Positions 1-36,886 of a stretch of 64,000 nt of DNA are shown here, piece by piece. Under the pieces are notes generated by a model, which was given only the letters and a program-made list of their open reading frames with translations, was not told where the DNA came from and ran no database searches. The stretch is from NCBI GenBank assembly GCA_000004985.1, contig GG738899.1; one strand, 5' to 3'. This DNA comes from Naegleria gruberi (Eukaryota). The first letter of the stretch is position 1. Every line of letters begins with the position of its first letter. The translations under genes and the position numbers were made by a program.

Positions 1-369
1 CGAACCCAAACCCAAACCCAAACCCAAACCCAAACCCAAACCCAAACCCAAACCCAAACCCAAACCCAAACCCAAACCCAAACCCAAACCCAAACCCAAA
101 CCCAAACCCAAACCCAAACCCAAACCCAAACCCAAACCCAAACCCAAACCCAAACCCAACCCAAACCCAAACCCAAACCCAAACCCAAACCCAAACCCAA
201 ACCCAAACCCAAACCCAAACCCAAACCCAAACCCAAACCCAAACCCAAACCCAAACCCAAACCCAAACCCAAACCCAAACCCAAACCCAAACCCAAACCC
301 AAACCCAAACCCAAACCCAAACCCAAACCCAAACCCAAACCCAAACCCAAACCCAAACCCAAACCCAAA
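1..369. repeat. Terminal telomeric repeat array (CCCAAA)n, about 61 units; C-strand on top means a left chromosome end, G-strand TTTGGG
   Basis: Direct reading: near-perfect hexamer cccaaa from position 1, with one variant cccaac near position 159. The array ends at 369 in a T8 run. Confidence 0.9.
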
Positions 370-590
370 CTTTTTTTTCATCGAGTACCTATTATCTCTA
401 GAACCACTTTGAGTTTTTATTAGCATATAACAGTTTGTCGATGAAATTGTACGCTGATTAACATATATAAGATCCAAGTTTTAAATATTGGCCATTAATA
501 AAATGGTAATGGGTTTTCGCCATACCCAAACCCAAACCCAAACCCAAAACCAAGGAGTTTAGATTGGAATGACTCCAAACCCAAACCCAA
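370..590. repeat. Subtelomeric junction element (~150 bp) ending in an inverted GGGTTTT followed by a short interstitial telomere tract (cccaaa x3-4, interrupted); copy 1
   Basis: ttatctctagaaccactttgag ... aatattggccattaataaaatggtaatgggttttcgccata, then cccaaacccaaacccaaaaccaagg ... ccaaacccaaacccaaacc. A homologous copy lies at 9586-9770. Confidence 0.6.
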
Positions 591-826
591 ACCTTTGATT
601 AATTCTAACCGTTCATCCATACGAATATTTGAATAGAAGTTACACGTTCACAGTGAACAGAATTTTATCATTTTTACAATCCAAACGGTTTTTATTGGCG
701 GGAAAAGGGAGCATTCTATTGTTTGAGGGAGCATTGCAAAAAAGCGGCGTGAACTTTTCAACAGATATCTAGATAGAAAGTATATAGTTTTTTTAAAACT
801 TTACTGAAAAACCTTTCCAAAAGCCC

Positions 827-3517
827 NNNNNNNNNNNNNNNNNNNNNNNNNNNNNNNNNNNNNNNNNNNNNNNNNNNNNNNNNNNNNNNNNNNNNNNNNN
901 NNNNNNNNNNNNNNNNNNNNNNNNNNNNNNNNNNNNNNNNNNNNNNNNNNNNNNNNNNNNNNNNNNNNNNNNNNNNNNNNNNNNNNNNNNNNNNNNNNNN
1001 NNNNNNNNNNNNNNNNNNNNNNNNNNNNNNNNNNNNNNNNNNNNNNNNNNNNNNNNNNNNNNNNNNNNNNNNNNNNNNNNNNNNNNNNNNNNNNNNNNNN
1101 NNNNNNNNNNNNNNNNNNNNNNNNNNNNNNNNNNNNNNNNNNNNNNNNNNNNNNNNNNNNNNNNNNNNNNNNNNNNNNNNNNNNNNNNNNNNNNNNNNNN
1201 NNNNNNNNNNNNNNNNNNNNNNNNNNNNNNNNNNNNNNNNNNNNNNNNNNNNNNNNNNNNNNNNNNNNNNNNNNNNNNNNNNNNNNNNNNNNNNNNNNNN
1301 NNNNNNNNNNNNNNNNNNNNNNNNNNNNNNNNNNNNNNNNNNNNNNNNNNNNNNNNNNNNNNNNNNNNNNNNNNNNNNNNNNNNNNNNNNNNNNNNNNNN
1401 NNNNNNNNNNNNNNNNNNNNNNNNNNNNNNNNNNNNNNNNNNNNNNNNNNNNNNNNNNNNNNNNNNNNNNNNNNNNNNNNNNNNNNNNNNNNNNNNNNNN
1501 NNNNNNNNNNNNNNNNNNNNNNNNNNNNNNNNNNNNNNNNNNNNNNNNNNNNNNNNNNNNNNNNNNNNNNNNNNNNNNNNNNNNNNNNNNNNNNNNNNNN
1601 NNNNNNNNNNNNNNNNNNNNNNNNNNNNNNNNNNNNNNNNNNNNNNNNNNNNNNNNNNNNNNNNNNNNNNNNNNNNNNNNNNNNNNNNNNNNNNNNNNNN
1701 NNNNNNNNNNNNNNNNNNNNNNNNNNNNNNNNNNNNNNNNNNNNNNNNNNNNNNNNNNNNNNNNNNNNNNNNNNNNNNNNNNNNNNNNNNNNNNNNNNNN
1801 NNNNNNNNNNNNNNNNNNNNNNNNNNNNNNNNNNNNNNNNNNNNNNNNNNNNNNNNNNNNNNNNNNNNNNNNNNNNNNNNNNNNNNNNNNNNNNNNNNNN
1901 NNNNNNNNNNNNNNNNNNNNNNNNNNNNNNNNNNNNNNNNNNNNNNNNNNNNNNNNNNNNNNNNNNNNNNNNNNNNNNNNNNNNNNNNNNNNNNNNNNNN
2001 NNNNNNNNNNNNNNNNNNNNNNNNNNNNNNNNNNNNNNNNNNNNNNNNNNNNNNNNNNNNNNNNNNNNNNNNNNNNNNNNNNNNNNNNNNNNNNNNNNNN
2101 NNNNNNNNNNNNNNNNNNNNNNNNNNNNNNNNNNNNNNNNNNNNNNNNNNNNNNNNNNNNNNNNNNNNNNNNNNNNNNNNNNNNNNNNNNNNNNNNNNNN
2201 NNNNNNNNNNNNNNNNNNNNNNNNNNNNNNNNNNNNNNNNNNNNNNNNNNNNNNNNNNNNNNNNNNNNNNNNNNNNNNNNNNNNNNNNNNNNNNNNNNNN
2301 NNNNNNNNNNNNNNNNNNNNNNNNNNNNNNNNNNNNNNNNNNNNNNNNNNNNNNNNNNNNNNNNNNNNNNNNNNNNNNNNNNNNNNNNNNNNNNNNNNNN
2401 NNNNNNNNNNNNNNNNNNNNNNNNNNNNNNNNNNNNNNNNNNNNNNNNNNNNNNNNNNNNNNNNNNNNNNNNNNNNNNNNNNNNNNNNNNNNNNNNNNNN
2501 NNNNNNNNNNNNNNNNNNNNNNNNNNNNNNNNNNNNNNNNNNNNNNNNNNNNNNNNNNNNNNNNNNNNNNNNNNNNNNNNNNNNNNNNNNNNNNNNNNNN
2601 NNNNNNNNNNNNNNNNNNNNNNNNNNNNNNNNNNNNNNNNNNNNNNNNNNNNNNNNNNNNNNNNNNNNNNNNNNNNNNNNNNNNNNNNNNNNNNNNNNNN
2701 NNNNNNNNNNNNNNNNNNNNNNNNNNNNNNNNNNNNNNNNNNNNNNNNNNNNNNNNNNNNNNNNNNNNNNNNNNNNNNNNNNNNNNNNNNNNNNNNNNNN
2801 NNNNNNNNNNNNNNNNNNNNNNNNNNNNNNNNNNNNNNNNNNNNNNNNNNNNNNNNNNNNNNNNNNNNNNNNNNNNNNNNNNNNNNNNNNNNNNNNNNNN
2901 NNNNNNNNNNNNNNNNNNNNNNNNNNNNNNNNNNNNNNNNNNNNNNNNNNNNNNNNNNNNNNNNNNNNNNNNNNNNNNNNNNNNNNNNNNNNNNNNNNNN
3001 NNNNNNNNNNNNNNNNNNNNNNNNNNNNNNNNNNNNNNNNNNNNNNNNNNNNNNNNNNNNNNNNNNNNNNNNNNNNNNNNNNNNNNNNNNNNNNNNNNNN
3101 NNNNNNNNNNNNNNNNNNNNNNNNNNNNNNNNNNNNNNNNNNNNNNNNNNNNNNNNNNNNNNNNNNNNNNNNNNNNNNNNNNNNNNNNNNNNNNNNNNNN
3201 NNNNNNNNNNNNNNNNNNNNNNNNNNNNNNNNNNNNNNNNNNNNNNNNNNNNNNNNNNNNNNNNNNNNNNNNNNNNNNNNNNNNNNNNNNNNNNNNNNNN
3301 NNNNNNNNNNNNNNNNNNNNNNNNNNNNNNNNNNNNNNNNNNNNNNNNNNNNNNNNNNNNNNNNNNNNNNNNNNNNNNNNNNNNNNNNNNNNNNNNNNNN
3401 NNNNNNNNNNNNNNNNNNNNNNNNNNNNNNNNNNNNNNNNNNNNNNNNNNNNNNNNNNNNNNNNNNNNNNNNNNNNNNNNNNNNNNNNNNNNNNNNNNNN
3501 NNNNNNNNNNNNNNNNN
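827..3517. other. Assembly gap (run of N, ~2.7 kb)
   Basis: Contiguous n characters. ORF 793..3933 is an artefact of translating the N run and the telomere repeats. Confidence 0.99.
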
Positions 3518-3897
3518 AAACCCAAACCCATTCCCAAACCCAAACCCAAACCCAAACCCAAACGCGAACCCAAACCCAAACCCAAACCCAAACCCAAACC
3601 CAAACCCAAACCCAAACCCAAACCCAAACCCAAACCCAAACCCAAACCCAAACCCAAACCCAAACCCAAACCCAAACCCAAACCCAAACCCAAACCCAAA
3701 CCCAAACCCAAACCCAAACCCAAACCCAAACCCAAACCCAAACCCAAACCCAAACCCAAACCCAAACCCAAACCCAAACCCAAACCCAAACCCAAACCCA
3801 AACCCAAACCCAAACCCAAACCCAAACCCAAACCCAAACCCAAACCCAAACCCAAACCCAAACCCAAACCCAAACCCAAACCCAAACCCAAACCCAG
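3518..3897. repeat. Second (CCCAAA)n telomeric block (~63 units with a few variant units), followed at 3898-3950 by degenerate telomere-like units (aaacccaacc, aaaccctagccc)
   Basis: Direct reading. Variant units: cccattccc at ~3530 and aaacgcgaaccc at ~3563. Same orientation as the terminal array. Confidence 0.85.
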
Positions 3898-3959
3898 AAC
3901 TAAAAATAGAATTCTTCTAAACCCAACCTTCAAACCCTAGCCCAAAATTATAAACTTAT

Positions 3960-4790
3960 TCAAATATCATTAAATTTTATATCATTCGATTGTAAATGAT
4001 GAGTAGAACAACGTGTTATATTTAGTTTTTCAATTTATAAAATATTAACTTTGTAAATAATATCAGATTAAAAATTTGTAAAAAGAAACCATAGGAAGAA
4101 TGATAATTTCAAAATCCTTTAATGAGATTATATAGTCTATATCATCATTAACAACATTTATAATCACTTCCATATCAAATTTCAAAAGTTCAAGTCTGTA
4201 GATATAAAAGTATCAAGTGAAAAGGGAAGTTGTGAGGTAAAAGAGGTCGACTATAACTTTTGAGTTTCTCATCAAAACATATTGAATCCTGACATGAAAA
4301 TGTTCCATTTGATGAGTAAACATCGAATATCAAATTTATTTTAACTTTCATATTTAAAGATTTCTTCCCTCAACCATCATGGTCAACTAGGGATGAAAAG
4401 GATGAAATCTTGAAAAAGGACCACCTATTGAAACTTTACCAAAATGATGTACATGATCTATAATGATATAGAATTCAATTTCATATCATAAAAATCAGAA
4501 ATGGTATCATGGGAAGGTAAATGTTGATATTTTATGGTTGACTTTAGAGAAAGACAAGTCAGACCAAGTCAATCAAATACATCACTTCAATCAACAAAAT
4601 ATACATGAAAATGCTCCATTCGATGAGTAGAGATAGATTATAAAGTTTATTTTAACTTTCATATTCATGATTTCAACTCTGACATACCATTCAGTCAACT
4701 GAGGGACATGAATGAAAATCTGGAAAATGACCACTCTATGAAACCTTACCATCATGATCTATATCACAAATAATGTTGTAGAGTTCAATT
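3960..4790. repeat. Subtelomeric repeat R750 copy 1, with internal ~230-bp subrepeats carrying the motif atgagta[ag]...atcgaatatcaaatttattttaactttcata
   Basis: ~90% identical to 11925-12700. Shared strings include aactttgtaaataat[ag]tcagattaaaaatt, ataaaagtatcaagtgaaaagggaag and gtgaggtaaaagaggtc[ga]actataacttttgagtttctcatcaaaacatattgaatcct. The internal subrepeat 4290-4440 resembles 4600-4760. Confidence 0.8.
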
Positions 4791-4924
4791 TGAGATGTTT
4801 ATAAGGTAATTTGTCTTTATAGGAAGGTAAATGTCTATATTCAAGGTCGGCCAAGTTCCTACCAGTACAGAAACCAAAAATTAAATAAGGCAAGAATTTA
4901 ATAAAGCCGAAGACCATCAAAAAA

Positions 4925-7070
4925 ATGAAAAGAAATCCCAAAGGGTTCTTGTCATCTGATGATGATGACGAACTTGTGGTGCGTTTGTCTGAAGAGCCTG
5001 TAGAAAATGACGATGACATTGAGTTGCCAAGAGATGATGAAAGTGATTCCGATGATGAACTAGACAGTGCCTTCACATCTATAATGTATGGAAATGATGA
5101 TGATGGTGAAAATATCATTGTGGAAAATCATNNNNNNNNNNNNNNNNNNNNNNNNNNNNNNNNNNNNNNNNNNNNNNNNNNNNNNNNNNNNNNNNNNNNN
5201 NNNNNNNNNNNNNNNNNNNNNNNNNNNNNNNNNNNNNNNNNNNNNNNNNNNNNNNNNNNNNNNNNNNNNNNNNNNNNNNNNNNNNNNNNNNNNNNNNNNN
5301 NNNNNNNNNNNNNNNNNNNNNNNNNNNNNNNNNNNNNNNNNNNNNNNNNNNNNNNNNNNNNNNNNNNNNNNNNNNNNNNNNNNNNNNNNNNNNNNNNNNN
5401 NNNNNNNNNNNNNNNNNNNNNNNNNNNNNNNNNNNNNNNNNNNNNNNNNNNNNNNNNNNNNNNNNNNNNNNNNNNNNNNNNNNNNNNNNNNNNNNNNNNN
5501 NNNNNNNNNNNNNNNNNNNNNNNNNNNNNNNNNNNNNNNNNNNNNNNNNNNNNNNNNNNNNNNNNNNNNNNNNNNNNNNNNNNNNNNNNNNNNNNNNNNN
5601 NNNNNNNNNNNNNNNNNNNNNNNNNNNNNNNNNNNNNNNNNNNNNNNNNNNNNNNNNNNNNNNNNNNNNNNNNNNNNNNNNNNNNNNNNNNNNNNNNNNN
5701 NNNNNNNNNNNNNNNNNNNNNNNNNNNNNNNNNNNNNNNNNNNNNNNNNNNNNNNNNNNNNNNNNNNNNNNNNNNNNNNNNNNNNNNNNNNNNNNNNNNN
5801 NNNNNNNNNNNNNNNNNNNNNNNNNNNNNNTCTGAGGATCCCATTGAGAGGAGATTCGATTTCATTCATTAGATTGAGAGACATTTCTTTCGAAATTGTA
5901 ACAGATGATGAATTAGATGATGGTACATTCACCATTAATTGTAATATGATCATCAGAAAGGAAAAACATATTGGGGAAGATAATGATCGTGAATTCAGAT
6001 TGTATGGTAAGAAGGATCAGAAATACTGTCCTGTATTCAATTTAATTAATTACCTATTTAGAAGAACTCCTAATCCATTTGAAGAATATCAGAAAGGAAT
6101 GAGTTTCAAATCTTTCTTATGCAAGCGAAACTTCAACCTGAATTCAAGTTTGAGTGAACAACCCCTTTTTACTCAAAAAGAATCAAGTAATCCAGCCACC
6201 TCCAAAGATCTTTCAAATTGGTTGAAGAATTCTTCCAGAGACAAATTGGGAATTACTTACTCCATGAGATCATTGAGATCCGGTTGTATAATCTTACTAT
6301 ATGCTACATTATGCATTATCAAAGGAACTCCAACTCTTGAAACAGGAGCATCCATTCCAATTAGAGCAATAGTTGGTCATATGAGAGACGAATCTATCAA
6401 ATTTTATATCAGAAAAGCTGTCACTCTCTGCCATAATTTTACTGACCTACAAGATGGTATCTCCGCAAAGAAATTGGATATTAATGATGTTGAACTTAAT
6501 TATTGTTTGACTATTCAGAAGTGTTGCTCTCATTCTGAATACTTAAAATGTCCTGAGTTTATTTCAAATTATATTAAGAACAATAAGGTTGATAGAAGAA
6601 CTTGGATTCCAAGAGGTAGGCCTCATTCTAATCCAAATTTAAAGAACCAACGCCACAGAGCTGCCACTGATATGAAAAAGTACATAATTGCAAATTATCC
6701 AATGCTAAATCTTGGAGATCCAGCTTTAAAAAGGAAAGATGTAGCATGGGAATCATTCTTTGCAGCATGTGGAACATTCATTACTGAAAATGAATTAGAT
6801 ATTGACCCGTATGCCGATTTATCCAAAGCTCAAAAACGAGATAGAAGAAACAAAATGTCTGCTTTGAAAAAGTGCCTTAATATTCTTTATGATGAAAGAG
6901 ATGATGATTTAAAGACCAAAAGTCAATCTAGATTGGATGAAATCATCGTTGGAGCTGAAGCTAATTGGGAGATTCCACAGAGTGCATATAATCCAAAATC
7001 CAAGAAGAGAAAGGTTGTTGCGGAATCTGAATCTGAATCTGAATCTGAATCTGAATCTGAATCTGAATGA
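4925..7070 (+). mobile_element. Crypton-like tyrosine recombinase gene, interrupted by an N-gap at 5132-5830. Acidic N-terminus, a tyrosine-recombinase catalytic domain, a KKRK nuclear-localisation signal, and an (ES)n tail encoded by (gaatct)8
   Basis: After the gap the ORF reads ...SMRSLRSGCIILLYATLCIIKGTPTLETGASIPIRAIVGHMRDESIKFYIRKA. This aligns motif-by-motif to the Cre/integrase box II region (HxxR...GxSIPxI...G[HW]...Y catalytic tyrosine). Upstream is a candidate box I / beta-hairpin Lys (REFRLYGKKDQKYCPVFNL). No reverse transcriptase or RNase H lies nearby, which argues against a DIRS element. Confidence 0.55.
5132..5830. other. Assembly gap (N run)
   Basis: n characters. All ORFs spanning it (5060..5953, 5128..5865 and the central part of 5088..7070) are artefactual in the X region. 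Confidence 0.99.
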
Positions 7071-7074
7071 CTAA

Positions 7075-7683
7075 NNNNNNNNNNNNNNNNNNNNNNNNNN
7101 NNNNNNNNNNNNNNNNNNNNNNNNNNNNNNNNNNNNNNNNNNNNNNNNNNNNNNNNNNNNNNNNNNNNNNNNNNNNNNNNNNNNNNNNNNNNNNNNNNNN
7201 NNNNNNNNNNNNNNNNNNNNNNNNNNNNNNNNNNNNNNNNNNNNNNNNNNNNNNNNNNNNNNNNNNNNNNNNNNNNNNNNNNNNNNNNNNNNNNNNNNNN
7301 NNNNNNNNNNNNNNNNNNNNNNNNNNNNNNNNNNNNNNNNNNNNNNNNNNNNNNNNNNNNNNNNNNNNNNNNNNNNNNNNNNNNNNNNNNNNNNNNNNNN
7401 NNNNNNNNNNNNNNNNNNNNNNNNNNNNNNNNNNNNNNNNNNNNNNNNNNNNNNNNNNNNNNNNNNNNNNNNNNNNNNNNNNNNNNNNNNNNNNNNNNNN
7501 NNNNNNNNNNNNNNNNNNNNNNNNNNNNNNNNNNNNNNNNNNNNNNNNNNNNNNNNNNNNNNNNNNNNNNNNNNNNNNNNNNNNNNNNNNNNNNNNNNNN
7601 NNNNNNNNNNNNNNNNNNNNNNNNNNNNNNNNNNNNNNNNNNNNNNNNNNNNNNNNNNNNNNNNNNNNNNNNNNNNNNNNNNN
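7075..7683. other. Assembly gap (N run)
   Basis: n characters. ORFs 6923..7690, 7067..7774 and 7071..7787 are artefacts. Confidence 0.99.
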
Positions 7684-8820
7684 ATACCAATTTGCATATT
7701 CTGTATCAATTTTACAGTGGTTGGCCAGTTTCCAAGGTCACTTATTAAGAAATGGTCAATTAACTTGCAAGTGACCCTTCCGGACACTTACAGTCACCAA
7801 AAACTATACCAATCAACTCTACTCATCGTCAACTACATTTTGATATATAATTTATTGACTGGTATGATACTTTCATATATGGTCATCTCAGCCCTCTAAC
7901 CTCCCATAGTAACTAAGGTATATACAGATCTCAATTTCCAGTGAGTGAATTTTAATTCTTTCAACTGTACCATGTTCCTGACATCAATTAGTGTATTCTA
8001 TATCAATTACATATGAATTGGTGATGTTTCCATTGACTTGAGTATACCTTGATTTGGTACCTTACCAAATATGGAAATGATGATATCTCTACTTCTACTG
8101 AATAGATTTGAATTGTTTCAACTCCAATACATTGCAAATATCATATAATATATTATGTATCATTTTCACTGTGGTCGGCAAGGTTTCAAGGGTAGGTCAT
8201 TAAGGATGGCCAATTGACTAACAAGTGACACTTCTAGACATTAACAGTCACAAATATCAATATCAATCACCTCCACTCACTGTCAGCAACATTTTGATAT
8301 ATAATTTATTGACTGGTATGATACTTTCATATATGGTAATTTCAGCCCTCAATCCATCCCATAGTACCTTAGGTATATACAGATCTCAACAAGTACTCAT
8401 CGAAATTAAATTCTGTCAACGCCAATCGATTTCTAACATCTAATTATGTATCGTGTATCAATTTCATATGAATTGGTGATGTTTCCATTGACTTTATTAT
8501 ACCTTGATTTGGTACCTTACCAAATATGGAAATGATGATATCTCCATTTCTACTGAGTAGATTTGAAATATTACAACTTCAATATGTTTAAAATATCGTC
8601 AGCAACATTTTGATATATAATTTATTGAGTGAAGTGATACTTTCATATATGGTAATTTCAGCCCTCAATCCATCCCATAGTACCTTAGGTTTATACATAT
8701 CTCAACAACTACTGAATAGATTTGAATTCTTTCAACACCAATCGACTTCTAACCTCAAATTATGTATCGTGTATCAATTTCATATGAATTGGTGATGTTT
8801 CCATTGACTTCAGTATTCCA
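7684..8820. repeat. Tandem satellite with a ~450-bp period (about 2.5 units)
   Basis: Three recurrences of the block: a first unit spanning about 7690-8140 that closes with ...aaatatggaaatgatgatatctc[tc]a[ct]ttctactga[ag]tagatttgaa; a core acattttgatatataatttattgactggtatgatactttcatatatggt[ac]at[ct]tcagccctc found at 7836, 8289 and 8607; and gtatcaatt[at]catatgaattggtgatgtttccattgactt found at ~8005, ~8455 and ~8770. Confidence 0.8.
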
Positions 8821-9585
8821 TTACATTCCCACAGCAGGATTTGAAGGATTCACCCTAATTGATTATATCCCTATGTACATGATTAATTTCAATTATTTCA
8901 ATTAGATATTATAAATCATGATGGTTAGACATGCAGGAATGAGTGGAATCAAGTCAAGTAAGACATTCATCCTTCAATTACCAATATTGTCAATTTCACA
9001 CAAGTTGACTTCCAAAAGTCTGCATATGGATCCAAACATGGTTTTTTCAATTATATATGATTATCATTGATATTAACTACAATTTCTAGGAGTTTAATAA
9101 ATTAGTATAGTGTTTCCATAGTATGGCTCAATATCTTGGTCAATTAAGGTAGAATGAGTACATTATACTAAGGATATAATATATTATACTCCCAACACTT
9201 CTACAAGGTAGATATCATCATTATACATCATATATATGAGATTGGTGATGATTCTAATAACATTCATATAATAGTACAATAAATGTTGAAAAGTTAATTT
9301 TAAGACATGTTGTAACTTATTAAATACACCGATTCAACATGATTAATTCATAATATCATATATTCATACATATATCTACAATATATTAAAATTTACATTT
9401 CAACCCAACTTTGAAATTTTAGACCTACTAGGGTAAAAACCTTAATATTTCAGGCAGTGCCTTATTATTTTTGAACGCAATGATATTTTTCAAATTTATT
9501 TGCGAATATAGTCAACTCATATTTATATCTACTACATATATTTAATCCAGACCGGCGATCTCCATATTCATAGAGTAATACCGGG

Positions 9586-9770
9586 AAAACCTAACTTTTA
9601 TTTTATCAGAGTTGATTATCTCTATAACTACTTTGAGATATGACTGCTTCGTTACAATATAAGCTTTTTATTTATATTTGAATGACATATATGAAATTCA
9701 GATACTCAATATTGGCCGTTCGTTAGTCGTCGATGGGTTTTCGTCTAACCCAAACCCAAACCCAAACCCA
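9586..9770. repeat. Junction element copy 2 plus a short interstitial telomere tract (taacccaaacccaaacccaaacccaatc)
   Basis: ttatctctataactactttgag ... aatattggccgttcgttagtcgtcgatgggttttcgtctaacccaaacccaaaccc matches 370-545, including the inverted gggtttt immediately before the cccaaa units. Confidence 0.6.
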
Positions 9771-11850
9771 ATCTTGAATATAGAAAACCACATCCTCAAT
9801 CAACAAAATACATATCAATCGATTGGAAATCATTAGTACATCTCGAAAATATCATTTATTTTATGTTTTGAAATCTCTCCTTTACCTCTTTTGGTCAATT
9901 AAGACAATTAAGGATGAGACTATAGGAAAAGTTACCAATCTCAAAATAAATGATAATATCGTGTTCCGCATCTCAAATAAAGTGGACTTTCTTCAAATTA
10001 TATATTTTCATTTCAATAAATGCATCCGTTAGATAGTACATGGTGATATTTCAATGGAATGGATGGAAATCTGAAGGATATAGAAACAACTCCATTTTCA
10101 CTGAAATTGATTTCATGACATGTAGACACTCTAATTAGTATATGGTATCAATTTTATGAATATTGGTTCAGTAGATGTCGACTTGTCAACTCTATCAATT
10201 TACTATAGACATTTGACATGATGTCATAGATTACACTCCAACTCACTCACTTTACATACAGTCAATCTAGAATTGATACCACATAGAGTATACATAAGTT
10301 AAATACACTGTATATAGTTTGGAAACAATTCGTATTACTTACAATTAGTCAGTCAGTTAATGTTCAATGTCAAAAGTGATTATATCCAAGTGTACACTCT
10401 ATCTCAATGAATGTACATCCTATCATCATGTAACTTTACCAGATACGTTTAATCATACTATTATACATATGGTATCAATTTAAGTCTATTAGAGTTGAAT
10501 TCAGTATGATAATAATAACAATCTGCCAAATTGTCAGATTTCAACATATAGAATATACTCCATCTCATTCATTTTACAAAATATCATACAAGTATCAAAT
10601 ATGAATACACTCTTCTTGGTGAGGAGAACAATCTGTGAGAGTTTCATATTGATGGCTCAATATCTTCAACTCAAGAACATCTAAGGTAATAAATAGGGAA
10701 GAATCTTAATTCCAAAATTAAATTTTACTATCATATCAAAATCATTGAATAATGAATTATTTATACAAGAATAATATATTCAATTGTTATACTCATGTCA
10801 GTAATCAGTGAAGGTGATACTTCTTCAACAGTAGTTTTCACATCTCAATATGTAGACAGTCAATTCCACTGAAACTTGAAATATTACCTATCTAGATGAT
10901 ATCATGATGACTCTCCATTGTAACATGCATGTGAAATTGAATGTTGACAGTTTACATCTTGTTATATTTATAGAGATGGTATCCAACAGAGTCAGTTCAT
11001 AATATTAAATATTGAAACTCATTCTGTATGACATGTTTGATGTATAGAACGGTTTTTTATTGAATATAATCAGTTTGAAATAATTTGATGAAATTGACAC
11101 TGTCTAGTCACCATTACATAACAAATAGACCATAGTTTACATTCCATCTCAGTCATTTCAACGAGTTATTGATTAATTCCACCACCATTATGTTTCTCAT
11201 ACATTGTAGTTCAGTTTGTATTTCAAGAGTGATTTCTGTGTAGATTATTATAATCGTAATACCTTGCAATACCAATAAAACTCAATAGAAGAGTTAATTC
11301 TTCTGATTTTCAAATAGATTATTCAATATAGAACACATCTAGATAGTTTCCATATCATAAAAGTCAAGATACTATATATGGTCTTTGATTAAATTTAAAA
11401 ATAGACTGCCGTTAATTACTGGAATATTAATTCAAAGCTTGTTGATCAAGCTATTGATTGAAATCAAACCGATTATTGAATATTGATCATTGAATTGGTG
11501 AATAATCACTCTTGATAATGTTACTTATTCATATTGCATGCAAATCAACCTGATTCAATCTACAAAGGTTGGTAGTTGCACCACTTCGTGGCGAAACTAC
11601 CATTCCACGATGAATCAACATAAGAATCACTTCCATTCAACTCAATTTGACCGTTATAATCAATAAATCAATGAAATGTTCCTTTATTAGCAATACCTAT
11701 TCAATCTAACGAGTAGATTCACGTCCCAAACATTTGACTTCTCAACGTCCATAATTCAAAAGTTAGTACTGACCTGACCTTTAAATATCTATCAACACAA
11801 GAAATGAAACCATCAAATTTACATCATTAATAGATCATAAGAATTATAAT
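9770..11850. repeat. Subtelomeric segmental repeat R2k, copy A
   Basis: Long collinear identity with 13055-15500. For example, atcttgaatatagaaaaccacatcctcaatcaacaaaatacatatcaatcgattggaaatcattagtacatctcgaaaatatcatttattttatgtt corresponds to 13055ff. Further anchors are at ~11220 (ttcaagagtgatttctgtgtagattattataatcg), ~11560 (gttggtagttgcaccacttcgtggcgaaactacc) and ~11700. Confidence 0.8.
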
Positions 11851-11899
11851 CAATGATATGAATCTTCACTAAGTAATCTCTTAAATAACCCAAATAAAT

Positions 11900-12700
11900 C
11901 AACTCTGAATCCTAACCAAACCCAACCATTAACTTTGTAAATAATGTCAGATTAAAAATTATAAAATGAAACCATAGGAAGAATGATAATTTCAAAATCC
12001 TTTAATGAGATTATATAGTATATATCTTCACTAACAACATTCATAATCACTCTCATATGAAATTTCTAAACTTCATGTCGGTAGGTATAAAAGTATCAAG
12101 TGAAAAGGGAAGATGTGAGGTAAAAGAGGTCAACTATAACTTTTGAGTTTCTCATCAAAACATATTGAATCCTAATATGAAAATGTTCCATTTGATTATT
12201 AAACATCGAATATCAAATTTATTTTAACTTTCATATTTAAAGATTTCTTCCCTCAACCACACATGGTCAACTATGATGAAAAGGTGGAAATCTTGATAAA
12301 GGACCACCTATTGAAACTTTACCAAAATGATTTATATGATCTATAGTGATATAGAATTCAATTTCATATCATAAGAATTAGAAATGGTACCATGGGAATG
12401 TAAATGTTGATTTTACAAAGTTGACTGAAAGGAAAGACAAGTCAGATCAAGTCTATCAAATATATCACTTCAATCAACAAATTACACATGTACATGCTCC
12501 ATTAGATGTGTAGAGATAGAATATCAAGTTTATTTTAACTTTCATAATCAAGATTTCATCCCTTTCATACCATCTAGTCAACTATGGACATGGATGAAAA
12601 TCTGGAAAATGACCTCTCTATGAAACACTTCCATCATGTTTAACAACTCAAATAATGTAATAGAATTCAATTTTAGAGTTTTAAAATGTAATTTGACAAT
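11900..12700. repeat. R750 copy 2, preceded by a degenerate telomere-like remnant (cctaaccaaacccaacca). A relic chromosome-end structure now lying internally
   Basis: Matches 3898-4790, including the degenerate tel-like leader and the aactttgtaaataatgtcagattaaaaatt...gtgaggtaaaagaggtcaactataacttttgag stretch. Confidence 0.75.
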
Positions 12701-13054
12701 ATAGTAAGGTAAAGGTTGATATTTTAAGGTTGACTTTAAGGATTGAAAGGTGAAAATCAAGATATCAAAAACATCACTCCAGTCAATAAAACACATATCA
12801 AAATGTTGCAAACGATGAGTAGTCATCGAAAATATCATTCATTCTAATTGGAAATATCTCTAATATCTAAATGGTGGTAAACTCTCCCTCAAATGAACAA
12901 ATGAATCAGCCAAGTTACCAATCTCAAATTAAATCATATAATCATGTTCCATATCTCGTATAATGTATATAATTCAGTTTTTAGACATTTTGGTAAATAT
13001 TCCATAATTCAGTAAGGTAAAGAGTGATTTATCAAGGTTGACTTGGGAGGATCA

Positions 13055-15500
13055 GGAGGAAATCTTGAATATAGAGAACCAAATCCTCAATCAACAAAAT
13101 ACATATCAATCGATTGGAAATCAATAGTACATCTCGAAAATATCATTTATTTTATGTTTTGAATTATCTCCTTGACCTAATTTGGTCAATTAAGACAATT
13201 AAGGATGATACTATAGGGAAAGTTACCAATCTCAAAATAAATGATACTATCATGTTTAACATCTCAAATAAAGTGGACTTTATTCAAATTATATATTTTC
13301 ATTTCAAGAAATACATCCGGTAGATAGTACATGGTGATATTTCAAGTGAATGGATGGAAATCTGAAAGATACAGAAACAACTCCATTTTCACTGAAATTG
13401 ATATCATGGTATGTAGACACTCTAATTAGCATATTGTATCAATTTTATGAATATTGGTTCAGTAAATGTCGTGTTGTCAACTCTATCACTTTATTATGGA
13501 CTTTTGACATGATATCATAGATTATACTCCAAATCACTCAATTTACATGCAATAAATCTAAAATTGATATCACACAATCTAGACATCATTTAAGTATATA
13601 TAAACAAGTTTAGAAACAATTCATGATACTTTCATTCAACCAATCGGTTCATGTTCAATGTCAACAGTATTTATATCCTAGTGAACTCTCTATCTCAATG
13701 AAAGCAGGTTCAATCATTATATAACTTTACCATATATATTAAATCACTTTATTAATTATATGGTATCATTTACAGTCTGTTAGAATTATATTCAGTATGA
13801 TAATAATATCATTCTTCCAAAAAGTCAGCTTTCATCACAAAGATCACACTCCATCCCATTCATTTTGCAAAATATCATATTAGTGTAAAATATGAATACA
13901 CTCCTCTTTATGTGGATAACAATCTGGAACAGTTTCATATTCATAGATCAATATCTTAAAGTTGCAACCAATCCATATAATAATTGAACACAATATTTTA
14001 ACGTAGATAAAATCGATTTACTTTGAAAAGTAATTTTAAAAATTATACGCCAAAATAGAGCAGCTTTCTTACTGGTCTTTCTTGTAGTGTTGAATTTATT
14101 TGTCCGAAAACCCAAGAATCTAAACCTAAAAACCTAAGCTAATTGAATATTCAATCTCATACCGGAAAAGATTCTTATTTGCGGAAAAAGATTCGAATCT
14201 TAGCGAATCTTCAATCAATTTCGAATGGAAACTGAATCTAATATCGAAATCTTTACCACTTTCCAAATAACAACGCAAACAACAAATACACCAAATCTCG
14301 ATATCTAGATAGAAAGTATATACTTTTTTTAAAACTTTACTGAAAAACCTTTCCAAAAGCCCAAGATTCACTTAAAGACTCTATATTAGATCATAAAGAC
14401 CATGGTGCCACCGAAGTAACAAATCAAAACAACTCTAATCCAAAACCTTATTTCCAAAATTAAATTTTACCATCATATCTAAATCATTGAATAATGAATT
14501 ATTTATACAGGAATCATATGTTTAGTTGTTATATTCATGTCAGTAATCAGTGAAGGTGACACTTCTCAAACCTAAGTATAGTAACATGCATGTGAAAACA
14601 TATATTGACACTTTTCATCTTGTTATATTTATAGAGATGGTATCTTACAGAGTCATCTCACAATATTAAATATTGAAGCTAGTTCTATATGATATATATG
14701 ATGTATAGAACTGTATTTGACGATGTCAATCCAGTATGAAATACTTTAGTGGAACTGACACTGTCTAGTCACAATTACATGACAAAGTAAACAATAGTAT
14801 ACATTCCATCTCAGTCATTTCAACGATTTATTGATTAATTCCACCACCATTATGTTTCTCATACATTGTAGCACAGTTTATATTTCAAGAGTGATTTCTG
14901 TGTAGATTATTATAATCGAAATATCATTCAATACCAATAAAACTCAATAGAAGAGTTAATTCTTCTCATTTTCAAATAGATTATTCAATATAGAACACAT
15001 CTAGATAGTTTCCAGATCACAAAAGTCAAGATGCTATATATGGTCTTTGATTAAATTTAAAAATAGACTGCCGTTGATTACTGGAATATTAATCCATAGC
15101 TTGATGATAAAGCTATTGATTGAAATCAAACCGATTATTGAATATTGATCATTGAATTGGTGAATAATCACTCTTGATAATGTTACTTATTCATATTGCA
15201 TGCAAATCAACATGATTCAATCTACAAAGGTTGGTAGTTGCACCACTTCGTGGCGAAACTACCCATCCACAATCAACATAAGAATCACTTCCATTCAACT
15301 CAATTTGACCGTTATAATCAATAAATCAATGAAATTTTCCTTTAATAGCAATACCAATACAATCCAATAAGTAGATTCACGTCCCAAACATTTGACTTCT
15401 CAAAGTCCATATTTCAAAAGTTGATACTGACCTGACCTTTAAATATCTATCAATACAAGAAATGAAACCATCAAATTTACATCATTAATAGATGATAAGA
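13055..15500. repeat. Subtelomeric segmental repeat R2k, copy B. It contains a ~480-bp insertion (about 13940-14420) absent from copy A; the insertion shares ...atctagatagaaagtatata[gc]tttttttaaaactttactgaaaaacctttccaaaagccc with 765-826
   Basis: Direct comparison with 9770-11850 and with 760-826. Confidence 0.75.
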
Positions 15501-16407
15501 ATATATTCAGTAACAAAAAAAGAAGGAGATGTTGAAACCCCAAAAAGAGTGCAAATAAATCAACCTCACCAAAGAAGAGAAAGACTAGTTCAGATTCAAA
15601 TCCATCCAAGAGAAAGAAGTCTAATCATCAAGAATCTGATGGATAAATTGAGGAAGATGGCAATGGAGAGCAGCATTATGAGGAAGAAGATTCACAAAAT
15701 TAATTCTAACAGTTAAAATTGTAACATAATAAAGGTTAAATCATATATTCGAATGAATTGAATATACCCAAGTCTACCTTAATTGAACTGGAAAAAAAAT
15801 TTCAAGTCGGGCTGCCTCCTAGTTAGCACCTTACTTTTACACCTAACCATTTTGTCCAAAATTAAGGATACAAGTTGAGGCTTAAAGTTGGTGGCTCACT
15901 TTTGATGTCATCTTTTCAAAAGTGAGAGTAATACATGGAGGCTAAAATGTTTGGTGCTGACTTTAACACTCTCACTTTCAAAAACTCCAGAGCATTTTAG
16001 TTTATTCGGGTAGATTATTGTTCATTTATTACTGGTAGCCACGAAGGGGAGATTCACTTCATTAAAAGTTTGATTTCAAAGGAATTTAAATAAAATTGTC
16101 ATCAAGGAGATATTAATGGCGCTTGAATCTCGTAATATTATGTAATATATCGTATTGAATAGTAAGCAATTAAAAAGGAGACTATAAGGCACATTTTGGT
16201 CTGATATACGAGCCGTAGTGATTATATTATTTTTAAGGCCGACATCCGCAATTAGATGTGTGTTTCTAAAGCAGGATGCTAACACTCGGGGGAACATGGG
16301 ATAGTGGAAATACCAGTTACGATTAACTCCAAAATGTGAAATTAACGAATTGTGCAGTAAAATTAAGCAGGATTACACCTCACTCAACAGAAAAACAGGG
16401 ATGAGAG

Positions 16408-27922: not shown

Positions 27923-29010
27923 ACACCAAGGATATTAAACCATCTTTAGAAAATTAACATATCGAGTAATTGTGGGCCAAGAATTAATGGTCAATATGGC
28001 CCAATCATCACCAATTTACACAACCAACAATCAATTCAACAACCAAAGTAAATTTGTGGAAAATGGTCAAAAGCTTATCTTCCATATTTTCATTGGCTGA
28101 TTTTTCGATGTTCCATGAGAGGATACACGAAAGAGTCTGCTCCCTTAGTCAGACACAACACAATGTCAATTTCTTCAGGATTCGAATTGTGAATATTTGA
28201 AGTGGCTGATTGAATAATTGGATAGTCGTTGAGGAAATCTTTTGGAATTGAAGAGAACTGACATTCTCTTTCTATCTGGTGTAAACTCCTATTCTGCCCA
28301 TCGTTAGAGTGTAGGTTTTTGGGAGAGAAAAAATATTGTGGATCAACATCAGGTACATCATGCCTCTGTTGATTCTTGGAGTGATTTCACATCTATTAAC
28401 TCCCAGAATTTCACCACATCATCTCATCATGATTTAAATAATAGTATTAATAGTAATTGTTGGAATTTAATCCTTCATCATGATTTGGAAATAATTTTAT
28501 TATTTGGAAAAATTCGAGTGGGTATTTCATCATCGGAACAACTACCATCATAATTTTTATTTATCATCATTATAATTGTAATATTTAGTGAAATAAATCA
28601 TCATCAGGTATTTGGAAAACTTTCAACACTTCCGAACATTTTCCTATTGATTATGAGTGAATGTTAACATTAGAGATTCATGCATTTGGAGAAGCATATC
28701 CTAATCACTTCAACTTTTCAATAGTAAGGTGAACTATTTTCAGACGATACATATTTGAAATCGTTTTGATTTCTTACAAAATTATCTTTTATTATTAATA
28801 GTATTTAACTTGAAATACTTGGCTAAACTATTTGGATTTTACATTTGTGGCGTTTTGTCTGCTAATTAACATTAGATTGCCCGTTGATTTCGTATCACAA
28901 CTCCACGGATTTTTGTAATCTCTTTCCATTTAACAAGATTCACAGCTCAAATTGAGGATTTATTTCTCGATTTTGGAAATTCACCTCAATGATAGTCTTG
29001 GATATTGCTA

Positions 29011-31347
29011 ATGAATCGACATGTGCTCACACCACAAACGAGGAAACCTACTCGATTCGTTTGGAAAATGAACCGCCTCTGTGCTACTCTTTCAACAAAA
29101 AAAAACATGGAGGTTTCGAATAATGTACCACCCCAACAACAAGTGGAACACAATGCAGATAGTACATTGCATCCTAAACGGTTATCTGGTACTGTGACCT
29201 TCGAGGAACCATCAACCACAGTTCCAATCACTGAGCAAGACTCCAAATCTAATATAACTTCTCAATCCATAATGAACAAATCCTTGTTTAATAGTTTCTT
29301 TCTAATAAGAATCTTGGAGAAAATACCTCTCATCATTAAATTGGCCCTCATTATTGCCTTTTGCTTGATTCCTATGGCAGTATTTGGTGCCTTACTGATC
29401 AATTCTGCTGCTGTCAACTTGAGCCATGCGAATGAGATTAAAAAACTATCAAAAGTAACAGTGCACCTCTCAGAAATTGTTAATTCTTTGCAGAATGAAA
29501 GAGGAACCACAGCTCTTTATCTAGGTTCTCACAAGAGACAGTATATTATTCAATTAGCTAAAGCAAGAAATCAAACTGACATTGCTATAGAAAGATTCTT
29601 GGCACTTTCAGTAAGCCCTAACGATATTTTGATTAATGAAAAGTGGAAGAGGACGTGGTATTTGTTTGAGGATTATTTGGGAAAGGTTACAAATTATTCG
29701 AAAGGTATTGGAGAGTGGAGAATGAAAGTGGAGGATGTTACTAACGAAACCTTTTTACCAACATTCCAAATCGTCAGTGATTGGAATTCCCTGACCAATG
29801 ATTTGATTAGAGTTATAACAAGTCAAAGCTTGGATCCAACTTTTGCAATAATTCACAATTCATTCAACTTGCTTACCTCAACTAAGGAATATCGAGGAAT
29901 TAGAAGATTTTTAGGAACTTTTGGATTTTTAAATGGAAGTTTGTCTCAAAGTTCGATTAATTCATTTAAAGAGGCTGCCATTAGAGTAAGTAATTTATTA
30001 GAAGAATATTTTGTAATAATTGAAAATTTAACTACTTTACAAAAATCTGTTAAATCGTTTTTTAGGGAAGATTGCTTAGACACTTATTTTCACTTCAAGC
30101 ATCCAACGATATTTACGAAGAATTCCATTCAAATGTTCTCAGTAATGATCAGCAAAATGTCTGTCAGAGAATGGAAGACTATGTCTTGGCAAATTATCAA
30201 AATTTAACAAAGTATACAGTTCAAGAATGGTATGATAACATGACTCTATGCATGGATTCATTTAGGAATGTGGAAGATGGAATGAGAGCTTTCTTATTAG
30301 ACTATTCGAATCAAATTGGTTCGAATGCTACCGATTCATTAATTGCATTTACCATAGTTATAGTAATGGTGGTTCTTGTGGCAGCATTAGTGGCATTACT
30401 ATTTTCGAAAACTATTCTAGGACCTTGGAAGAAAATGTTGCGTCTCCAAGAGGACATGGTTTACAAATTCGTGCCACGAGAATTCATGTCCATTATTAAT
30501 AAGGAGAAGGTTACAGATTTGCATCATGGTGATTTCTTTGAGAAGGAGTTGGACATTATGTTTGTCGATATTCGAAACTATACTTCAATGAGTGAGAGAC
30601 TACCAACTGATCAAATGTTCAAATTCTTGAATCGATATTTGGCTTTGGTTGGTCCGATTGTGAGGAGAAATTGCGGATATATTGATAAATATATGGGTAT
30701 GTTCATTCTAGAATGATTATAAACTTTATTAAGGTGATGGATTTATTGCCCTATTTACAGAGCCAGGCCATGCACTGAAAGCATCTATTGAAATTCAAAA
30801 TTGTGTTCTGGTGTTTAATGAGAGCGTGTCACCAATCATTGGTCCTATTTCAATAGGATGTGGAATTGTCAGAGGTCGATGTGCAGTTGGTTTGATAGGT
30901 GAATCAAAGAGAATGGATCCAACTATAGTTGGGGATGCCGTCAATTTATCTGCTCGATTAGAATCTCTGACGAAATATTACAATGCCAAGATTCTAGTTT
31001 CGAAAAGTGTAACCGATTCTTGTTCACCTATTTGGCTGGGAGATGGAGGGACTTGGCGATCCATTGGAAAAATATGTGTAGTGGGTAAGAGAAATTATGT
31101 AGAAATTATGGAAATTATTCCTTTTAATAATTGTAAGAAACGGTCAACTAAGGAAATGTTTGAGAAGGCCATTACACACCTATTTTGCAGAGATAAATTT
31201 GATCCCATTACTGCTGAGCAACTATTAGAACAAGTTTCTATCATTGATCCAGACGATAGGATTTGTAAAATGAGATTATTATTGGCACAGTCGTTGGTTG
31301 TGGATTGTTCACACTGGGATTTTGTTGATACTCCAAATACCAAATAA
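29011..31347 (+). CDS. Receptor-type class III nucleotidyl (adenylyl/guanylyl) cyclase with an extracytoplasmic NIT (nitrate/nitrite-sensing) domain flanked by two transmembrane helices. Three exons: 29011-29985 (or -30012), 30066-30696, 30734-31347
   Basis: TM1 IIKLALIIAFCLIPMAVFGALLI. NIT signature VHLSEIVNSLQNERGTTALYLGSHKR. TM2 LIAFTIVIVMVVLVAALVALLFS. Cyclase motifs: ELDIMFVDIRNYTSMSERLPTDQMFKFLNRYLALVGPIVRRNCGYIDKYMG|DGFIALFTEPGH...GCGIVRGRCAVGLIG...IVGDAVNLSARLES. Intron 2 (30697-30733, gtatgt...ttaag, phase 1) rebuilds the canonical KYMGDGF. Intron 1 runs either 29986-30065 (gtaagt donor) or 30013-30065 (gtaata donor); both are in frame. Confidence 0.7.
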
Positions 31348-36813: not shown

Positions 36814-36886
36814 AGCCCTAGAGATGTTTCGATCATCTGACCTCAACCTTATGAGGGTTATGCTCTCCCACTGAGCTACGAGGGCT
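36814..36886 (-). tRNA. tRNA-Met (anticodon CAU) gene with an initiator-like T-loop (AUCGAAA: A54, A60), followed by a T5 Pol III terminator
   Basis: Reverse complement: GCCCTCG-TA-GCTC-AGTGGGA-GAGC-A-TAACC-CTCATAA-GGTTG-AGGTC-AGATG-ATCGAAA-CATCT-CTAGGGC-T, then TTTTT. D, anticodon and T stems are fully paired. The acceptor has a G1:C72 pair and one C6:U67 mismatch. Confidence 0.75.

Follow-up and report, generated by a model that had tools for sequence, protein, structure and literature searches.

A putative Crypton-like tyrosine recombinase family beside the telomere repeats of Naegleria and related organisms

We analyzed a 64,000-nucleotide stretch of Naegleria gruberi NEG-M DNA (contig GG738899.1 of assembly GCA_000004985.1; G+C 33%; hereafter the window), which forms the left end of a scaffold of 331,038 bp, and in particular a recombinase gene at positions 4925-7070 of it. 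The window starts with about 61 copies of CCCAAA and, since TTTGGG has been proposed from genome data as the candidate telomere repeat of N. gruberi (PMC3622300), it can be taken as the left end of a chromosome-scale scaffold. Five long open reading frames in the window are identical to annotated N. gruberi NEG-M proteins, which excludes the ciliate origin with a non-standard genetic code that the telomere-like repeat had initially brought to mind. An initial annotation, made from the sequence alone, had placed a Crypton-like tyrosine recombinase gene between telomere repeats and subtelomeric satellites. Its coordinates proved right: the gene starts 1.03 kb inward of the second telomere tract, (CCCAAA)63, and 455-bp satellites lie downstream. 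What that annotation missed is that telomere adjacency is a property of a whole family of such genes and not of this single copy.

The gene is visible as two coding pieces on either side of an assembly gap. The N-terminal piece (4925-5131, plus strand, frame 2) begins with an ATG, is strongly acidic and runs into the gap after 69 codons. The C-terminal piece (5832-7067, plus strand, frame 0) leaves the gap as 412 open codons, with a chance probability of about 2e-15 under the local base composition, and closes with a TGA stop at 7068-7070; it contains most of the catalytic domain and a helical C-terminal region conserved across the family. The best homologue of the translated fragment is a protein of Naegleria lovaniensis (E 3e-66), a match that identifies this as a real gene. 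The N-terminal piece probably belongs to the same gene, because it shares its strand, starts with an ATG and corresponds in position to the acidic N-termini of the homologues P0007 and P0012; pairwise scores against these two proteins are not significant. The coding pieces are in different frames, though the length of the gap (699 N) is a multiple of three; hence, either that length is an estimate or a frameshift or intron lies within the gap. The acidic N-terminal motif and the first catalytic Arg are separated by about 375 residues in the homologues versus about 250 in the window. The homologue lengths thus suggest that, beyond the initial figure of about 700 bp of open reading frame (ORF) lost in the gap, about 0.4 kb more may be missing. 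Judging from the other family members, the gap should encode a linker and the N-terminal core-binding (SAM-like) domain. Along the protein, the acidic N-terminus is followed by a predicted core-binding domain (in the gap here) and a Cre/Xer-like catalytic domain; the conserved helical region comes next, and a basic motif with an acidic tail behind it completes the C-terminus. Three features listed in the initial annotation, namely the acidic N-terminus, the PKSKKRKV motif and the (ES)8 tail derived from a GAATCT microsatellite, were all found, and in several homologues, too, the basic cluster is succeeded by a tail that is acidic or rich in Ser. The N. gruberi copy is apparently an intact family member. 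It is found neither in the N. gruberi annotation nor in a collection of 15 billion proteins, and its absence from the reference annotation is attributable to the assembly gaps. Besides this gene, ORFs of at least 60 amino acids (aa) in 1-12000 comprise only telomere-repeat, N-run, satellite and AT-rich frames, together with one antisense frame of 119 aa (4759-5118) that overlaps the acidic N-terminus; there are no ORFs of at least 120 aa in 9000-16400.

Direct sequence comparisons were of little help in classifying the encoded protein. Single-sequence searches of both coding pieces against Pfam returned nothing relevant and those against PDB sequences likewise; a word-indexed protein search with the window fragment gave 0 matches and, when repeated with alignments, only members already known, while a PHROGs search yielded noise only. 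The SMRSLR, GASIPIRAIVGHM and FYIRK motifs named in the initial annotation are all present in the window protein, but the residue-for-residue match to box II of Cre that had been built on them does not hold up: neither BLASTP nor Smith-Waterman comparison is significant, the former finding nothing and the local alignment score being reached by 103 of 500 shuffled sequences. An hhalign comparison of the family with Cre was also not significant (E 0.06), with a sensible alignment through the core-binding domain and Arg I. Profiles of the family found no match among PDB sequences, and no Pfam model reached its threshold; Phage_integrase (PF00589) does not match the window protein at all, and the best-scoring family member (E 8.5e-4) stays below the gathering cut-off.

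Evidence of another kind points consistently to a recombinase. The sub-threshold Pfam matches among members, to NDC10_II (three members, best E 6.3e-6), Phage_integrase (two) and Phage_int_SAM_4 (two), all lie in this direction. Two independent AlphaFold models match tyrosine recombinases, which dominate the match lists, with further matches to the N-terminal SAM-like domains of integrases and to the ALOG domain; in a viral structure library the named matches at E <= 0.001 are nearly all integrases or tyrosine recombinases. A fold of the tyrosine recombinase superfamily, nearest to the simple Cre/Xer-type enzymes, is thus well supported by these models, and the initial assignment stands on fold and catalytic residues, though not on the Pfam integrase model. 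The empty searches and the insignificant resemblance to Cre would also be expected if the motifs were a chance resemblance in a lineage-specific protein of some other function. Against this, the two independent structure models and the sub-threshold matches agree with each other and the conserved positions of the family coincide with catalytic ones, so that we consider such a coincidence very improbable indeed.

The family alignment shows an N-terminal helical domain followed by five conserved blocks in the order and spacing of a tyrosine recombinase active site: (L/M)R(G/A/S)D(S/T), x-K-x-K, R-(S/A)-x-R-(S/T)-G, G-(H/W) and Y-x-R. The active-site positions, assigned by family alignment and motif order rather than by structural superposition, are kept in every member that covers them. 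The second His of the classical site (His II of HxxR) is an Arg in all members (R-S-[LMF]-R); type IB topoisomerases have a Lys at this position. These proteins constitute a new recombinase family, invisible to Pfam, with an unusual R-K-R-R-H/W-Y site.

An exhaustive phmmer search of 1.84 billion representatives recovered 11 homologous proteins. Members come from N. lovaniensis (P0006), Naegleria fowleri (P0012, at two loci), Willaertia magna (P0013) and N. gruberi itself, where a paralogue (P0009 = D2VHF4) lies on another scaffold; P0007, P0008, P0010, P0011 and P0014-P0017 derive from metagenome or read-archive contigs and one contig of an NCBI assembly. The closest full-length homologue is P0007 (891 aa), encoded on the near-identical contigs L002 and L003 from different metagenome samples. 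The family has several deep branches, with two present in each of two metagenome samples and two in N. gruberi. A C-terminal chromodomain (Pfam E 4.7e-10) is found in P0009, and its presence suggests heterochromatin targeting of this paralogue. Scans of metagenome contigs with P0007 and a four-sequence alignment gave no relatives, nor did a scan of viral contigs. So far, the family is known from amoeboflagellates of the Heterolobosea (Naegleria, Willaertia) and from uncultured organisms, one or more of which have a TTTGGG telomere repeat. In the literature searched we found no papers on Cryptons or telomere-associated recombinases in Naegleria or other Heterolobosea. The initial annotation had also suggested looking for other copies and their termini: copies were found, as listed here, but no termini could be defined.

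The most consistent feature of the family is its genomic position: in five organisms, on six assembled chromosome-end contigs, the gene is the last or next-to-last one before the telomere repeats, at a distance of 0.1-5.7 kb. In the window, (CCCAAA)63 borders the gene-bearing segment on its upstream side, and on the other side an (AACCCA)4 tract follows the gene at 2.7 kb. In N. fowleri, two contigs, of 723 kb and 516 kb, have the gene at their ends; a stop at residue 520 interrupts the frame midway through the catalytic domain, and the pseudogene extends for about 25 codons more before giving way to over 226 copies of TTTGGG. The two N. fowleri ends are 99.4% identical over 3.7 kb and represent one duplicated terminal block, which starts exactly at a (GGGTTT)2.5 tract beyond which the chromosomes differ. 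Thus, telomere tracts stand on both sides of the gene segment in two species, N. gruberi and N. fowleri. In W. magna, 1.34 kb separate the end of the gene from a contig end with TTTGGG repeats; on the metagenome contigs L002 and L003, the gene is followed after 1.97 kb by a terminal (TTTGGG)n; and in N. lovaniensis the telomere is 5.7 kb away, with a pogo-type transposase gene in between. L010, a short contig of another assembly, carries a (CCCAAA)3 tract just upstream of the gene. The observed distances would arise together with a probability of about 3e-7 if placement on the four large contigs were uniform, a null that overstates the case as it ignores the general enrichment of repeats in subtelomeres. 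A location shared so widely in the family suggests the telomere array or its edge as the target.

Two further repeats were observed on contigs of homologues. Just inside the N. lovaniensis TTTGGG telomere (contig L005, 17594-17710) there are about 13 copies of a 9-bp variant repeat, TTATTGGGT. The contig of the distant homologue P0008 (L004) ends at 4400-4471 in a 12-bp tandem repeat, (GAAGTTCTTGTA)n, which is not of telomere type.

The contexts of the gene differ from locus to locus. It is the only ORF conserved at all of them: no similarity was detected between neighboring regions of different species at the nucleotide or translated level, even for N. lovaniensis versus N. fowleri. With regard to dispersal, the two N. 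fowleri loci are one duplicated block, and there is no synteny between the locations in different species. Damage is seen in several copies: a single in-frame TAA interrupts the ORF of N. lovaniensis, that of N. fowleri is cut short and contains stops at each of the two chromosome ends that carry it, and the W. magna copy needs two frame changes, for which assembly errors are possible in sequence of 18% G+C. Upstream of the homologues, the contigs L002, L005 and L007 have tandem repeats of 160-376 bp, which stop about 40-270 bp short of the ATG, and a second copy of the upstream repeat is present downstream in N. gruberi (7.9 kb) and N. lovaniensis (4.8 kb). Taken together, the non-conserved neighbors, the damaged copies and the deep branches are habits of a transposable element and not of a conserved host gene.

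The converse proposal is a domesticated recombinase, a possibility raised in the initial annotation. Such a host protein could act at chromosome ends, e.g. in subtelomere exchange or in the resolution of telomeric circles, and be kept there for regulation. The conservation of active-site residues across deeply diverged genera, the few copies seen per genome and the chromodomain of the N. gruberi paralogue would fit such a role, and there is a precedent in WOC, a domesticated Crypton protein that binds Drosophila telomeres (PMC3212892). However, the copies of N. fowleri and N. lovaniensis, and probably that of W. magna, are damaged, and no neighboring gene is conserved. Moreover, the known domesticated Crypton genes (ZMYM, QRICH1, KCTD1, WOC) are marked by loss of catalytic residues, conserved synteny and DUF3504, whereas the Naegleria family keeps its catalytic residues and shows neither of the other two. 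Domestication is accordingly disfavored, and we regard it as improbable.

Another alternative is that the gene belongs to a retrotransposon of the DIRS/TATE type, whose reverse transcriptase (RT) has been lost or is hidden in the N runs. TATE elements, known from Leishmania braziliensis and other kinetoplastids, occupy a fixed site within the telomere hexamer of Leishmania (PMC6681497), a genus that falls within Discoba as Naegleria does; uncertain DIRS1-like traces have been recorded in N. gruberi (PMC3266345), and the 2691-N gap of the window is large enough to hold an RT gene. TATE, however, is placed among the DIRS-type retroelements, whose RT and RNase H are encoded by the element itself, and no RT accompanies the Naegleria family. 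None lies beside the gene on the gap-free contigs L001, L002/L003 (5.5 kb), L005 and L007, and no co-oriented RT is found next to any copy. In the window, a telomere tract of 380 bp separates the 2691-N gap from the gene, and the visible sequence has no RT or RNase H beside it, as the initial annotation had stated, though the N gaps could hide one. On the N. fowleri contig VFQX01000033.1 (L006), a 5'-truncated RT/RNase H ORF of 610 aa is encoded on the minus strand at 7700-9597, 450 bp upstream of the recombinase gene. It would favor a retroelement by its proximity, but it is an opposite-strand insertion that is missing from the otherwise 99.4% identical second end (L007). The retrotransposon origin is thus a poor fit and seems to us quite improbable.

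The organization of the N. gruberi chromosome end (Table 1) is that of a mosaic. The interstitial telomere tracts (518-555, 571-596, 9743-9775 and about 11885-11925) have the same polarity as the terminal array and separate subtelomeric units, so that the end gives the impression of units added one after another at the terminus and split by telomere tracts of one polarity. The segment with the gene (about 4855-9770) has the appearance of an insertion when the R2-A' junction is taken as reference. Regions 365-600 and 9560-9790, which hold the two copies of the approximately 150-bp unit, show 75% column identity when aligned. Both units are flanked by telomere-type repeats and end in TGGGTTTTCG(C/T)C(A/T)(T/A)ACCCAAACCC (510-533 and 9734-9757). 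This forms an inverted pair of telomere hexamers around a spacer of 7-9 nucleotides, which occurs twice in the window against an expectation of 0 and is absent from the other 12 related loci searched. In its layout the motif looks like a recombinase core site; we do not claim it as a recombination site. Neither remnants of the recombinase in A and A' nor second copies elsewhere in the 64 kb were detected by tblastn, tblastx or the family hidden Markov model run against six-frame translations.

Table 1. Features of the N. gruberi chromosome end and of the recombinase gene (window positions)
Feature	Position	Strand	Remarks
Terminal telomere tract, ~61 x CCCAAA	1-370	+	C-strand on top, as expected for a left chromosome end
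Distal copy of the ~150-bp telomere-associated unit	371-517	+	left side cut by the terminal telomere tract
Two short interstitial telomere tracts	518-555, 571-596	+	TGGGTTTTCGCCAT precedes the first, giving an inverted telomere hexamer pair
N run (gap, 2691 N)	827-3517		
Second telomere tract, ~63 x CCCAAA	3518-3904	+	same contig as the gene start, 1.03 kb upstream of the ATG
R1, ~2.7 tandem units of a 310-bp repeat	4044-4855	+	directly upstream of the gene; recurs at 11928-13060
Recombinase gene, two coding pieces around a gap	4925-7070	+	
Assembly gap inside the gene	5132-5830	.	699 N
Arg I (LRGDS)	5847-5849	+	
Lys (RKEK)	5958-5960, 5964-5966	+	
Arg at the His II position (RSLRSG)	6267-6269	+	
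Arg II (RSLRSG)	6276-6278	+	
His III (GH)	6378-6380	+	
Nucleophile Tyr (FYIRK)	6405-6407	+	
PKSKKRKV, candidate nuclear localisation signal	6993-7016	+	basic clusters at the same place in P0006, P0007 and P0009
(GAATCT)7.7 microsatellite encoding the (ES)8 tail	7023-7068	+	
N run (609 N) downstream of the gene	7075-7683		
455-bp satellite, ~2.5 units	7696-8584, related repeats to ~8820	+	after the 609-N gap
Unique sequence	8821-9606		
Proximal copy of the ~150-bp unit	9607-9746	+	ends in TGGGTTTTCGTCT
(AACCCA)4 tract	9747-9770	+	right-hand telomere tract bounding the gene-bearing segment, 2.7 kb downstream of the gene
Segment A, older subtelomeric mosaic	9771-11880	+	
Degenerate telomere remnant	~11885-11925	+	
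R2, gene-free copy of the upstream 310-bp repeats	11928-13060	+	
Segment A', copy of A	13061-15500	+	
First ordinary gene	from 16408		

These observations lead us to favor, with moderate confidence, the proposal that the gene makes up the entire coding content of a small mobile element of a Crypton-like, recombinase-only kind that resides at chromosome ends. Such an element would move as double-stranded DNA, probably via a circular intermediate, with the recombinase joining it into or next to a (TTTGGG)n array, so that copies would end up bounded by telomere tracts. The tracts of telomere hexamers that bound the gene segments in N. gruberi and N. fowleri could act as its termini. Terminal copies would be eroded and re-capped by telomerase, as the N. 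fowleri truncation illustrates, and copies would spread between chromosome ends by recombination within the tracts. A more specific version, which we put forward only tentatively, is that the recombinase integrates a circular copy into (TTTGGG)n with the hexamer itself as the crossover, much as the 6-bp terminal repeats serve in Cryptons, building Y'-like terminal units with tracts between them.

Several points weigh against this proposal. To begin with, there are the lack of threshold Pfam matches and of PDB matches described above, and the Arg in place of His II, which leaves catalytic activity plausible but not certain. We identified neither element termini nor short terminal direct repeats, empty sites or circular junctions, and the four more distant members on contigs of 2-5 kb (L004, L009, L011 and L012) have no telomere repeats on them. 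Orientation is not uniform: transcription of the gene runs away from the chromosome end in N. gruberi, and apparently on L010, but heads for the end in N. fowleri, N. lovaniensis, W. magna and the metagenome contigs, and a single polar site-specific reaction does not account for both orientations. The distal telomere junctions share no motif and resemble healed breaks; healing combined with break-induced replication could yield the tract-unit-tract pattern without any recombinase. Other transposons are also found in these places: in addition to the RT fragment of N. fowleri there is the pogo-type transposase gene of N. lovaniensis, and many kinds of transposons accumulate in subtelomeres.

Much of this would be accounted for if the element were an ordinary recombinase-only transposon without telomere specificity, which survives only in subtelomeres, being purged elsewhere in compact genomes, and is spread by subtelomeric recombination. 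The company of other transposons, the single duplicated block behind the N. fowleri copies, the healed-break appearance of the junctions and the distant members without telomere repeats are all in keeping with such passive accumulation. However, five organisms with the gene at 0.1-5.7 kb from the repeats form a tighter pattern than general subtelomeric enrichment gives, and passive survival does not readily explain telomere tracts on both sides of the segment in N. gruberi and N. fowleri. We therefore consider it rather unlikely, though it is the alternative to be taken most seriously.

As to the N. lovaniensis transposase, it is encoded directly after the recombinase gene (L005, 12023-13285, minus strand) and is of the pogo/Tc5 type, with a DDE_1 domain. 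A 300-bp direct repeat, 86% identical between its copies (9136-9435 and 13931-14230), brackets the recombinase and transposase genes.

Among known systems, the nearest counterparts to the proposed element are the Cryptons, tyrosine-recombinase-only DNA transposons of fungi, oomycetes, diatoms and animals (Goodwin 2003; Kojima & Jurka 2011), for which circular excision followed by site-specific reintegration has been modeled (PMC3212892). The Naegleria family shares with them a single recombinase ORF of about 650-900 aa, the lack of an RT, a conserved C-terminal extension, decayed copies and the absence of detected terminal inverted repeats or long terminal repeats. In addition, the weak NDC10_II matches link it to the recombinase-like region of Ndc10/Cbf2, whose central part in Ndc10 resembles the CryptonF recombinases (PMC3212892). 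The differences are that the Naegleria family has no threshold match to Crypton-derived Pfam models, with neither DUF3504 nor GCR1_C matching, that the His of the R-H-R-Y tetrad is an Arg, that the 4-6 bp terminal direct repeats of Cryptons have no defined counterpart, that Heterolobosea are not among the reported Crypton hosts in the literature searched, and that the Naegleria genes are consistently telomere-adjacent. Thus, of the initial Crypton-like label, the parts that stand are the single conserved ORF and the lack of a conserved RT, but neither termini and direct repeats nor transposition have been demonstrated; a Crypton origin is plausible, with the sub-threshold NDC10_II match as its sole sequence-level link.

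A recombinase tied to integration at a host telomere motif is also known from viruses: the endogenous nimaviruses of crustaceans (majaniviruses and pemoniviruses) have telomere-repeat-specific tyrosine recombinases, and the inserted element lies between telomere repeats (PMC10871703). These are, however, 300-kb genomes whose recombinases have arm-binding and zinc-finger domains, whereas the Naegleria unit is a few kb long with one gene; the viral structures closest to the Naegleria family are generic phage integrases. Of the simpler enzymes that it resembles in fold, Cre, XerH and XerA show only 12-16% sequence identity to it and no significant sequence match. They also differ in lacking its long acidic N-terminal and helical C-terminal extensions, its Arg for His II and its eukaryotic nuclear setting. 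The protelomerases TelK, TelA and ResT are set apart by the absence here of a close structural match and of hairpin telomeres. In terms of architecture, the yeast Y' and telomere-linked helicase elements offer a parallel, i.e. a single-gene unit immediately inside the telomere, with short tracts between units and spread by recombination. The unit-and-tract arrangement is alike, but Y' encodes a helicase with no sequence or fold relation to the recombinase.

Elsewhere in the window, the end of a short ORF at 15560-15645 (plus strand; SPKKRKTSSDSNPSKRKKSNHQESDG and then a stop) lies at the inner edge of A' and has a basic-plus-acidic character like the tails of the recombinases; it is too short and of too low complexity for any call. 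A 1223-aa ORF at 52555-56226 (minus strand) has a TNP-like RNase H N-terminal domain (P-element/THAP9-type; Pfam E 1.5e-5) and cysteine-rich termini, and is possibly a transposase, either domesticated or intact. At 29005-31347 (plus strand) there is a NIT-domain cyclase-type gene (Pfam NIT E 1.3e-18), a member of a gene family expanded in Naegleria. A transfer RNA gene at 36814-36885 (minus strand) is the sole Rfam match in the window.

In the nuclear genomes of eukaryotes, tyrosine recombinases are a rarity, and telomere-specific elements are almost all retrotransposons. Against this background, the present family would be a recombinase-only one that lies beside telomere repeats in several genera of a deep-branching lineage, including the pathogen N. 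fowleri, and its alignment and coordinates allow it to be annotated in newer long-read assemblies. If confirmed, it would widen the host range and the sequence diversity of Crypton-type elements, and would offer a simple system for studying how a site-specific recombinase recognizes direct-repeat targets such as telomere arrays. Were the proposed integration into telomere repeats true, this would be the first recombinase-only transposon, neither viral nor retroelement, with telomere specificity. It would also imply recombinase-driven turnover of subtelomeres, and possibly end repair, at heterolobosean chromosome ends, and, if confirmed, would explain part of the mosaic structure of the chromosome ends of Naegleria.

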